A DNA stretch of 64,000 nt from Candidatus Multivorans sp. (GTDB taxonomy: Bacteria > Acidobacteriota > Thermoanaerobaculia > Multivoradales > Multivoraceae), in contig OZ253534.1 of NCBI GenBank assembly GCA_965262355.1, positions 3,023,670 to 3,087,669 on the forward strand. Reading direction: 5' to 3'. Numbering within the stretch: position 1 is the first letter of the stretch; the number at the start of each line of letters is the position of its first letter. The notes beneath the pieces are model-generated. The model saw only the letters and a program-made list of their open reading frames with translations. It ran no database searches and was not told the origin of the DNA. Both the position numbers and the translations under genes were made by a program. Positions 7,315 to 15,980 of the stretch are shown here, one piece after another.

Positions 7315-8133
7315 ATGACCGTAGCCGAGATGAAGAGCACCCCAGACCCGGAGTTGCGGGTCGATGTCCAGGACCGCGTCGCCCTGCTGACGTTCAACCG
7401 TCCAAAGAAGCTGAACGCCCTTTCCGGCGAGATCACCAGCGGCCTCCAGGAAGAGCTGCCGCGGCTGGCCGCCGACCCCGACGTTGGCGTGATCGTCCTC
7501 ACCGGCGAGGGTCGGGCCTTCTGTGCCGGCGGCGACGTTTCGGGCATGAGCAAGTCGGGCGGCGCCCCGGCGACGCTCGAGCAACGGATCGACGGTCTGC
7601 GGCGCGGCCAGGAGGCGGCGTGGCTCGTTCACTCCGTTCCCAAGGTCACGATCGCCCTGGTCAACGGCTTCGCCATGGGCGCCGGCCTCGGCTTGGCGGC
7701 AAGTTGCGACTTGCGGCTGGCCTCGAGCGCGGCGAAGTTCGGCACCGCGTACTCCAAGGTCGGCTACGGCGGCGACTGGGGCACGACCTGGCAACTGACC
7801 CGGCTGGTCGGTCCGGCGGTGGCCAAGGAGCTGTTCTTCACGGCCGACATCATCGATGCGGAGGAGGCGCGGCGCATCGGCCTCGTCAACCGCATCTACG
7901 ACGCGGAGAGCTTCCACGCCGAAGGGATGGAGTTCGCGTCGCGGCTCGCCCACGGGCCGCTGGTGAGCTATCGCTGGATGAAGGAGAACGTGAACCTGGC
8001 GGTGACGCAGGACTTCCGGTCCATCCTCGACCGCGAGGCGATCTCGCACATCCGTTGCGGTGAGACCGACGATCACCGCGAAGGCGTCGCGGCCTTCATG
8101 GAGAAGCGGGCGCCGCGGTTCACCGGGCGCTGA
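7315..8133 (+). CDS. Enoyl-CoA hydratase/isomerase (crotonase family)
   Basis: LTFNRPKKLNAL, FCAGGDV, ...EGVAAFMEKRAPRFTGR C-terminus; RBS aggagga 7 nt before ATG 7315. Confidence 0.85.
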   Translation: MTVAEMKSTPDPELRVDVQDRVALLTFNRPKKLNALSGEITSGLQEELPRLAADPDVGVIVLTGEGRAFCAGGDVSGMSKSGGAPATLEQRIDGLRRGQEAAWLVHSVPKVTIALVNGFAMGAGLGLAASCDLRLASSAAKFGTAYSKVGYGGDWGTTWQLTRLVGPAVAKELFFTADIIDAEEARRIGLVNRIYDAESFHAEGMEFASRLAHGPLVSYRWMKENVNLAVTQDFRSILDREAISHIRCGETDDHREGVAAFMEKRAPRFTGR

Positions 8134-8139
8134 CGTGAA

Positions 8140-8166
8140 AGCGCCCGAAGCTCGTGGAGCTTCGGG
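8140..8166 (+). terminator. GC-rich hairpin terminator downstream of crotonase gene
   Basis: gcgcccgaagctc-gtg-gagcttcgggtgc; same left arm reused at 15891-15924. Confidence 0.45.
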
Positions 8167-8636
8167 TGCTAGAAAGAGCTCGCGGGTCCCGAACGACCCA
8201 GCCCTGTCTGGCGCTGATGATGGCGACCCGGACGCAGGGCAACGTCGGTTCGATTGACGGCGACAACCCGGCCGCGGCGGCGCTGCAGGTGGAGCGGACG
8301 GCGGCCGCCGCGGTGCGGCTCCAGAACCTCGAGTGAACGCCGAACCCGGACTTCAAGTGCGGAGCGAAACGACCCGGACGGCCCCCAATTCTGTAGGCGA
8401 CAATCCCGACACACTCTGCTGAACTCAAACTCTTGTTGAGTTTGCCTTGGTCCAACGCGCTGCCGACCCGTGTCCCGCGTCCCCGCGATGCGCTCCCGCA
8501 GTTGTACCGGCTGCAGCCGGTTCGCCCCGGCCTGCGCGGGGCATCGGCGGGGCGCCCCGACAGCGCCTCGGGAGTCCGGCCGCAGCCCCGACTCGTCGAC
8601 CTGGTTGACGGCGTGCAGCCGCGCGCCGACTGAACA

Positions 8637-15850: not shown

Positions 15851-15890
15851 GTAATAGGGCGTCGCCGCATGGCGGCGCCTGGGCAGGCAA

Positions 15891-15924
15891 AAGCGCCCGA
15901 AGCTCCTTCGAGCCTCGGGCGCCC
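15891..15924 (+). terminator. GC-rich hairpin terminator after giant gene (homologous to 8140-8166)
   Basis: gcgcccgaagctc-cttc-gagcctcgggcgc. Confidence 0.45.
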
Positions 15925-15980
15925 GGCCGCATTGTGTTGTGAGGCGGCACCCTGCAAGGCGCCGCGGAGCGGCGACGGCT

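Follow-up and report, generated by a model that had tools for sequence, protein, structure and literature searches.

Some integrative elements insert at gene 3′ ends; they carry a partial copy of the gene tail that restores the target, and they lie between direct repeats, attL and attR. Homology-facilitated illegitimate recombination (HFIR) has been defined elsewhere, as have the orphaned 3′ ends that it leaves behind (PMC3240628; PMC5361080 and references therein). In E. coli, circular molecules that integrated by a single crossover gave rise to duplications, 109-950 bp long, of the homologous locus (PMC3240628). Here we describe a locus from a Thermoanaerobaculia (Acidobacteriota) population, contained in a stretch of 64,000 nucleotides that was analyzed as a whole and is called the window below, in which the end of a crotonase gene is found a second time at the 3′ end of a giant surface-protein gene. 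We favor the reading, with a probability of roughly 0.6, that this repeat was left behind as a scar when an illegitimate recombination event, associated with microhomology, joined a truncated giant gene to the end of a crotonase allele. The features of the locus are as follows.

7315-8133, plus strand: enoyl-CoA hydratase (crotonase) gene, 272 aa (Pfam ECH_1, E=1.5e-53), the allele that travels with the giant gene
8088-8095, plus strand: microhomology on the crotonase side, GCGGCCTT, in codons for Ala-Ala-Phe
8097-8133, plus strand: left repeat core, the last 11 codons and stop of the functional crotonase (MEKRAPRFTGR, then stop), 37/37 to the empty-site tail
8140-8170, unstranded: left hairpin, called type A, which begins 6 nt past the stop with no spacer (-26.8 kcal/mol, z=-6.4)
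8171-8636, unstranded: non-coding DNA upstream of the giant gene, part of the insert and absent from empty sites
8637-9136, plus strand: 5′ part of the giant gene, with a signal-peptide-like N-terminus and a fucosidase-like domain (GC 0.55-0.58), intact in the IS-free twin contig L001
9137-10273, plus strand: IS630-family insertion sequence, in frame, with DDE_3 and HTH_23/29/32 (Pfam), absent from L001
10276-15813, plus strand: remainder of the giant gene, with Big_12, SWM, cadherin/Big_9, three K319L-like PKD domains, a 3-keto-disaccharide-hydrolase-like domain, five GLWSDGxTLWV propeller blades, a linker and an LRR N-cap, ending in ...REIAALT
15803-15813, plus strand: junction zone, GCGGCCTT microhomology plus GAC, with the crossover point ambiguous within the zone
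15814-15850, plus strand: right repeat core, an orphaned crotonase tail that gives the giant ORF its MEKRAPQFTGR and stop, 36/37 to the left copy and to the empty-site tail
15851-15888, unstranded: spacer hairpin of 38 nt, in the right copy and the empty-site allele (called type B) only, 32/39 to the empty contig L011, with its stem at 15857-15880
15889-15922, unstranded: right hairpin, 34/34 to the empty site (-35.7 kcal/mol on the minus strand), a putative convergent/bidirectional terminator in common with the Gcw_chp gene
15981-16673, minus strand: Gcw_chp-family gene (Pfam PF09694), the ancestral convergent neighbor of the crotonase gene

The two repeat cores match at 36 of 37 positions: CATGGAGAAGCGGGCGCCGCGGTTCACCGGGCGCTGA, the final 37 nt of the crotonase gene at 8097-8133, recurs at 15814-15850 with one substitution. 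The 36-nt core pattern has two exact occurrences in the 64-kb window and none in 100 shuffles. Likewise, the 5′ arm of the hairpin, AAAGCGCCCGAAGCTC, is repeated exactly over 16 nt and was found solely at 8138-8153 and 15890-15905 when up to two mismatches were allowed across the window. With a core of 36/37 and an exact 16-nt hairpin arm, the recurrence of the crotonase tail and terminator arm at the 3′ end of the giant gene, which is the heart of the original prediction, lies far beyond chance, and the suggested check for the module elsewhere located each motif just twice in the window. Just upstream of the cores, the 8-mer GCGGCCTT is present at 8088-8095 and at 15803-15810, with a 3-nt offset between the copies. 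A loose DNA alignment of the crotonase gene with the 3′ kilobase of the giant gene revealed nothing informative outside a 45/48-nt block. A REP-like dispersed hairpin was considered as an identity for the repeated unit and rejected on its two copies in 64 kb. A transposon target-site duplication was also rejected, given the length and imperfection of the repeat and given that the sole IS at the locus is a later insertion that duplicated TA.

To place the repeat in its evolutionary setting, the locus can be compared among strains. The nearest species-level genomes are the MAGs JAJDUI01 (L012) and WTGQ01 (L013), whose crotonases share 91% and 89% amino acid identity, respectively, with that of the window. 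All contigs with an identical crotonase (L001-L009) carry the giant gene, and the called genes of L001 and L002 place one cargo gene in the insert. Contigs that encode an identical Gcw_chp protein are organized differently: in L010 and in L011, the latter a contig of 4.9 Mb, the crotonase gene is convergent with Gcw_chp and 122 nt lie between them. In the outgroup species L012 and L013 the crotonase gene abuts Gcw_chp, and in L013 the two stop codons overlap. A single crotonase gene is present at the locus in 4/4 of these empty genomes. At the empty sites of L010 and L011 the direct repeats collapse to a single tail-spacer-hairpin unit, and the unit that separates the two cores in the window measures 7,717 nt. 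Judged by the genomes compared, the empty state is ancestral and the insert derived, because the close strains L010 and L011 and the outgroup species L012 and L013 are all empty. The proposal that a 7.7-kb segment forms a discrete insertion bracketed by the repeat is borne out by the same genomes, in each of which the crotonase gene lies beside Gcw_chp with one tail and one terminator.

The two copies of the tail are followed by different sequences. The empty site has a crotonase tail that is 37/37 to the left copy, then the 38-nt spacer hairpin, and then a hairpin with a CTTC loop. The left and right hairpins of the window match at 27/34 positions, and the post-stop layout of the left copy matches that of the outgroup L012 at 32/40. 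These alignments identify the left and right copies as two different alleles of the crotonase 3′ flank, because the spacer is missing from the left copy, as it is in L012, and present in the right copy, as in L011. Note that the distinction between type A and type B is a single indel-defined character seen in few genomes. A repeat made of two alleles is therefore something other than a fresh target duplication. It had been proposed that the repeat is simply old and that its copies differ only slightly. The first description does not suit two structurally different alleles, and the second applies to the core, with its one substitution, but not to the right copy as a whole, which has the additional spacer hairpin at 15851-15888.

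At the right end of the insert, the giant gene itself is cut short. Homologues of its C-terminal region (93-96% query cover) bear LRR_4/LRR_8 domains (Pfam), and the window protein can be aligned with them as far as the LRR N-cap (IPDPVLSALIAPALGKESGEPISLREIAALT), with the last propeller blade and the linker included. The homology ends at ...REIAALT, where the homologues go on for ~170 aa of LRR and the window protein turns to the crotonase tail, so that the C-terminal end of the giant ORF reads ...AALTMEKRAPQFTGR and then stops. By this alignment the giant gene has lost its 3′ end and is fused, in frame, with the orphaned tail of a crotonase gene, because the homologues continue into LRR at the point where the window switches to MEKRAPQFTGR and a stop. 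Gene-tail capture, one of the two origins first offered, is thus an apt description of the 3′ end of the giant ORF, in which homology to the LRR homologues stops and the crotonase tail follows. The captured part is shorter than was claimed: a crotonase origin can be demonstrated only for the last 11 codons and the stop of the 18 codons assigned to it; EIAALT lines up with the LRR N-cap in homologues of the giant protein.

The 8-mer lies in the junction zone and encodes Ala-Ala-Leu in the LRR cap and Ala-Ala-Phe in the crotonase. An 8-mer match within 20 nt upstream of a junction is expected by chance at ~1.3% of window positions. Identity to the crotonase does not resume directly at the microhomology but with a 3-nt offset, and the junction is therefore not a clean microhomology junction. 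The same 3 nt had been taken for an indel between the copies, and are most simply read as part of the junction zone rather than as an indel inside homologous sequence. In the occupied contig L002 the last residues of the orphan tail are altered by a 1-nt deletion, although L002 is a 6x long-read assembly in which an error is possible; the deletion suggests that the sequence of the captured tail is not under selection. The LRR-bearing paralogues L092-L094 lose DNA similarity to the window at the propeller end (15601). One of them, L094, comes from the same sample as L001 and holds, at another locus, a paralogue with an intact LRR that is 91% identical over 1.39 kb. These paralogues are unable to fix the breakpoint because they are too diverged near the junction, and a homologous-protein search for closer alleles of the linker and LRR cap gave no match, the giant proteins being seemingly absent from the index searched.

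The start of the giant gene also required revision. The ORF at 9158-15850 comprises 2,230 codons and starts with an IS630-family transposase (NCBIfam transpos_IS630, NF033545, 273 bits against a cutoff of 100). The terminal inverted repeats of the element read TGTA[G/C]TGTCTCC[G/A]ACATGG, and its TA target duplication, at 9135-9136 and 10274-10275, was checked against the uninterrupted site in L001, which reads ...GAGTACCTA|TGTGAAC... and belongs to a contig 99.98% identical to the window over 18 kb. Splicing the IS out yields a single ORF of 2,024 codons that starts at 8637. The 2,230-codon gene is an artefact of the in-frame IS insertion, which arises because there is no stop between the host gene and the transposase frame. 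A giant gene does therefore end at 15850 as the original prediction had it, but the ORF given for it is chimeric, with its first ~370 codons belonging to the IS630 element and its true start at 8637. Comparison with L001 marks the IS630 insertion as recent, later than the rest of the locus and particular to this strain. The domain architecture listed above was derived from Pfam, from repeats and from alignment to the LRR-bearing homologues P0001, P0002, P0025, P0067, P0008 and P0056, and the fucosidase-like domain matches the alpha-L-fucosidase of PDB 9pnj with E=1.7e-11. Neither a blastn search of the 470-nt region upstream of the giant gene against 85 loci (L010-L094) and the rest of the window nor a tblastn search of that region with Gcw_chp for a relic of the gene gave anything significant.

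The limits of the DNA that differs between strains were read directly from alignments. Against the empty contig L011, the window has 8 differences in ~1,900 aligned positions (about 0.4%) at 5200-7099 and 0 differences at 16090-16939, and it diverges sharply from ~7150 to ~16070, a tract that extends past both repeat copies and includes the crotonase gene. Inside the tract, the promoter region of the crotonase gene differs greatly, identity is 96.7% in the gene itself, and mismatches amount to 14-40% per 50-nt window in the non-coding DNA around the relic. The comparison with the occupied contig L002 gives the opposite picture: the flanks are 5-10% divergent, whereas there is 1 mismatch in 7190-8133 and the giant gene is 98.5% identical. 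The crotonase gene is accordingly 99.9% identical to that of L002, which is occupied and has a divergent background, and less similar to that of L011, which is empty and has a near-identical one. As these alignments indicate, the crotonase allele, giant gene and orphan tail move between strain backgrounds as one block, because L011 is similar in the flanks only and L002 in the block only. Transfer of the block, from ~7150 to ~16070, takes place through ordinary homologous recombination within the genes that flank it. The repeat thus bounds the insert, as had been claimed, but the present-day difference between strains is bounded further out and takes in the crotonase gene. Excision from the occupied haplotype was rejected as the source of the empty strains, whose crotonase allele and promoter differ.

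The accessible ENA-derived data contain two haplotypes only. Neither is the predicted precursor, in which a crotonase gene and a type A hairpin would be followed by a giant gene whose LRR is intact. A protein-based scan and an exact DNA core scan of JGI metagenomes returned nothing related, and an exact look-up of the sigma-54 activator, made to gain further right junctions, returned no record.

The hairpin stems are highly stable (z = -4 to -7), and their orientation bears on the claim that the terminator carried by the tail serves the giant gene. A consensus scan calls the right hairpin as a minus-strand terminator with a TTTT tail (T-run GCGC-TTTTGCC), and finds no consensus T-run on the plus strand of the window; the empty site has a GCGC-TTTGG tail, and the left hairpin has merely TTTC on the minus strand. 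Because the T-run sits on the minus strand, the right hairpin is probably in the first place the terminator of Gcw_chp. It possibly acts in both directions, and to that extent the claim may stand.

We infer the mechanism of the recombination, which may have run in either of two directions. An illegitimate event with homology on one side only would be the most economical origin, and it was probably homology-facilitated. The ancestral order would have been crotonase, hairpin and convergent Gcw_chp, and in some lineage a giant gene with an intact LRR C-terminus would have come to lie downstream of a type A crotonase and terminator. Recombination between this lineage and an empty type B lineage could then have proceeded in two ways: an empty type B recipient took up a fragment from an occupied donor, or an occupied recipient took up a fragment of the empty type B locus. 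The non-homologous end would have been sealed within the LRR-cap coding region, at a patch that resembles the crotonase tail (CGCGA...GCGGCCTT), and joined to the last 36-37 nt of the crotonase allele and to the spacer and terminator that follow them. The LRR repeats were lost, and the giant ORF now reads in frame through the orphaned tail to its stop and would use the shared hairpin. The composite of crotonase allele A, giant gene and orphan tail B segregates today as one haplotype, and the IS630 hit on the giant gene was a still later step in this strain.

One feature expected of HFIR is visible at the locus: a junction unites unrelated sequences at a short microhomology and cuts a gene short. 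The other side would be expected to fall in homologous anchor sequence from a different lineage. There the crotonase allele and its promoter co-segregate with the insert and differ from the empty-strain allele (96.7% identity against ~99.6% in the left flank), and a hairpin with an L012-like layout follows, but later homologous exchanges blur the original crossover. A donor or precursor with the gene intact would be expected too, and here an intact LRR occurs solely in paralogues at other loci (L094).

Several other origins would also give a repeated tail. A circle that carried an LRR-less giant gene with a crotonase tail and terminator could have integrated by one crossover in the 37-nt tail and so duplicated that segment, leaving direct repeats around the insert where the empty site has a single copy. 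Under such a Campbell-type event, the two parts that diverge from the empty site, namely the left hairpin and the DNA immediately before the right copy, would be circle-derived, which fits an attL/attR-like pattern; moreover, single crossovers of circular molecules in E. coli gave the 109-950 bp duplications cited above, whereas true HFIR gives deletions (PMC3240628). The tail holds one informative SNP, too few to phase the copies and so to separate HFIR from a single crossover. However, the circle demands two rare steps, namely an illegitimate circularisation that makes the LRR-cap/tail junction and then a crossover within ~37-45 nt of homology, and alone it leaves unexplained why the adjacent crotonase gene and promoter form a distinct allele that travels with the insert. 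We regard a Campbell-type origin as unlikely, if worth keeping in mind. The artificial circular junction that would correspond to a Campbell-type or integrative event reads ...GCGGCCTTGACCATGGAG...GCGCTGA-CGTGAAAGCGCCC... A site-specific islet, for which the crotonase 3′ end and hairpin would be attB, the two copies attL and attR, and the islet's own tail the sequence that restores the target gene, seems to us very improbable. Pfam scans of 8120-15850 revealed neither an integrase nor any other recombinase in 8134-15813, where the sole transposase is that of the IS630 element that L001 lacks, and an excisionase is likewise missing from the 7.7 kb, which hold one cargo gene and the late IS630. 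The target gene is intact, imperfect direct repeats stand at both ends with a core of 36/37 amid more diverged sequence, and they collapse to one copy at the empty site, all as an islet would have it; yet the right att would be fused in frame to a truncated gene, as in a breakage accident and not at an element terminus, the limits of the strain difference fall outside the repeat, and the module is nowhere else in the window.

The remaining origin starts from a resident paralogue, with two tandem crotonase genes of which the second was mostly lost, by insertion of the giant gene or by deletion, and left its tail and terminator behind. We judge this decidedly improbable, and with it the original prediction's alternative of an island inserted in a crotonase paralogue: every empty genome, the two outgroup species included, has a single crotonase gene at the locus, and no crotonase homology is recognisable upstream of 15803. 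It would account for two diverged copies of tail and terminator in one genome, and the fusion could have come from a later microhomology deletion. The right flank is nevertheless the locus's own and not that of a paralogue, because the post-stop sequence of the right copy is orthologous to the empty-site sequence. A broader proposal, which we hold to be highly speculative, is that the crotonase-tail/hairpin module could serve this uncultured lineage as a landing pad used time and again, a short recombination hotspot where cassettes with large surface-protein genes come, go and are trimmed without a dedicated recombinase; the captured tail and hairpin would then be kept because they give the cassette working termination.

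If the locus arose by one-sided illegitimate recombination as favored here, it would be a natural example, from an uncultured acidobacterial population, of a surface-protein gene of ~2,000 residues being grafted beside a housekeeping gene and, in the same event, losing its C-terminal LRR domain and taking its stop codon and terminator from the orphaned tail of another gene. The same population contains the locus in its empty, occupied and IS-disrupted states, which makes this an unusually well-documented instance. It is an ordinary kind of evolutionary scar and reveals no new kind of system. The locus also carries a warning for annotation, in that an in-frame IS can create a spurious giant ORF and the last codons of a gene may have the history of another gene.

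Compared with known systems, the IS element is typical of the IS630/Tc1-mariner family, with a DDE_3 transposase and N-terminal HTH, terminal inverted repeats and a TA duplication, and nothing about it is unusual except its in-frame insertion. Like integrative elements that target gene 3′ ends, the insert leaves the 3′ end of its target functional and places imperfect direct repeats around strain-variable DNA; unlike them, it has no integrase, and one of its att-like copies is joined in frame to a cargo gene that is broken. The direct duplication of a short homologous segment around an insert, with one copy at the empty site, is shared with Campbell integration (PMC3240628), but here the homology is very short (37-45 nt and a hairpin), only one of the copies has the 38-nt spacer, and a circle is not known. 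The HFIR scars of Rhs, CDI and T6SS effector loci have a homology anchor on one side, an illegitimate seal on the other and the displaced gene as a downstream 3′ remnant (PMC5361080, PMC3240628), and here too a remnant, the crotonase tail, stands beside an 8-nt microhomology. The locus differs from those scars in that its mechanism is deduced from sequence, in being a housekeeping-type crotonase/Gcw_chp pair with no toxin array, and in that the incoming gene is itself truncated and appears to have co-opted the remnant, with its 37 nt of coding sequence, as its own stop and terminator.

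The reading frame of the giant surface-protein gene, which begins at position 8637, is interrupted at a TA by an in-frame IS630-family element (9137-10273), and this insertion gives rise to a spurious 2,230-codon open reading frame. The element is present once in the window. Because it is missing from L001, a 99.98%-identical contig that carries the giant gene, the insertion is very recent or polymorphic. Once the element is set aside, the gene includes these parts:

8637-11100, without the IS element: fucosidase-like N-terminal domain
about 11948, 12759-13338, and 14241-14820: repeat modules, cadherin/PKD units

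The 5′ portion has a GC content of 0.55-0.61, compared with 0.67 for the window, and for this reason base composition suggests that the fucosidase-like domain is of mosaic or foreign origin.

Large internal repeat modules occupy positions 11828-14826 of the window, and their counterpart in L002, an occupied strain with divergent flanks, spans 11386-20350 of that contig. The cadherin/PKD units are spaced 930 and 1482 nucleotides apart and share 74-91% identity. Their copy number differs among strains, and as a result the giant protein is 2,003 amino acids long in L001 but about 2,990 amino acids long in L002, where it is called as two proteins of 2,442 and 551 amino acids. A multi-domain paralogous gene with an intact LRR C-terminus was observed at positions 1-2949 of contig L094, from the same sample as L001 (ERZ25068833). 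This paralogue resides at a separate locus adjoining TrkA and UvrD genes and matches window positions 11703-13076 with 91% identity over 1.39 kb, which indicates that the giant surface-protein genes of this community exchange modules.

In the crotonase promoter region of L011 (reverse strand; approximately window 7190-7260), the empty-site allele has 49 extra nucleotides ahead of the gene, which appear to be a unit containing GGTTCGCGTGTGGCGCGGAACGCGCCAC that was duplicated in tandem. These are missing from the occupied crotonase allele and from the outgroup L012. In a second outgroup, L013 (WTGQ01; 10816-10825), the crotonase stop codon overlaps that of the convergent Gcw_chp gene (…CGCTAGAACGAG…), and the locus has no intergenic hairpin whatever. 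Thus, the crotonase/Gcw_chp locus does not always carry the terminator hairpin.

Two further segments were found to vary. The prolyl-tRNA-synthetase-like gene and the PDZ gene are separated by intergenic DNA (4544-5064) that does not align with L002 or the close empty-site strains L010 and L011 and that differs in length, at about 520 nucleotides versus about 260; it is another small variable region. Likewise, a 1.7-kb segment common to the window (732-2438) and L001 is missing from L010 and L011. At the matching place in L001, an IS110-family transposase is called (DEDD_Tnp_IS110/Transposase_20), and the segment is a second strain-specific IS insertion.
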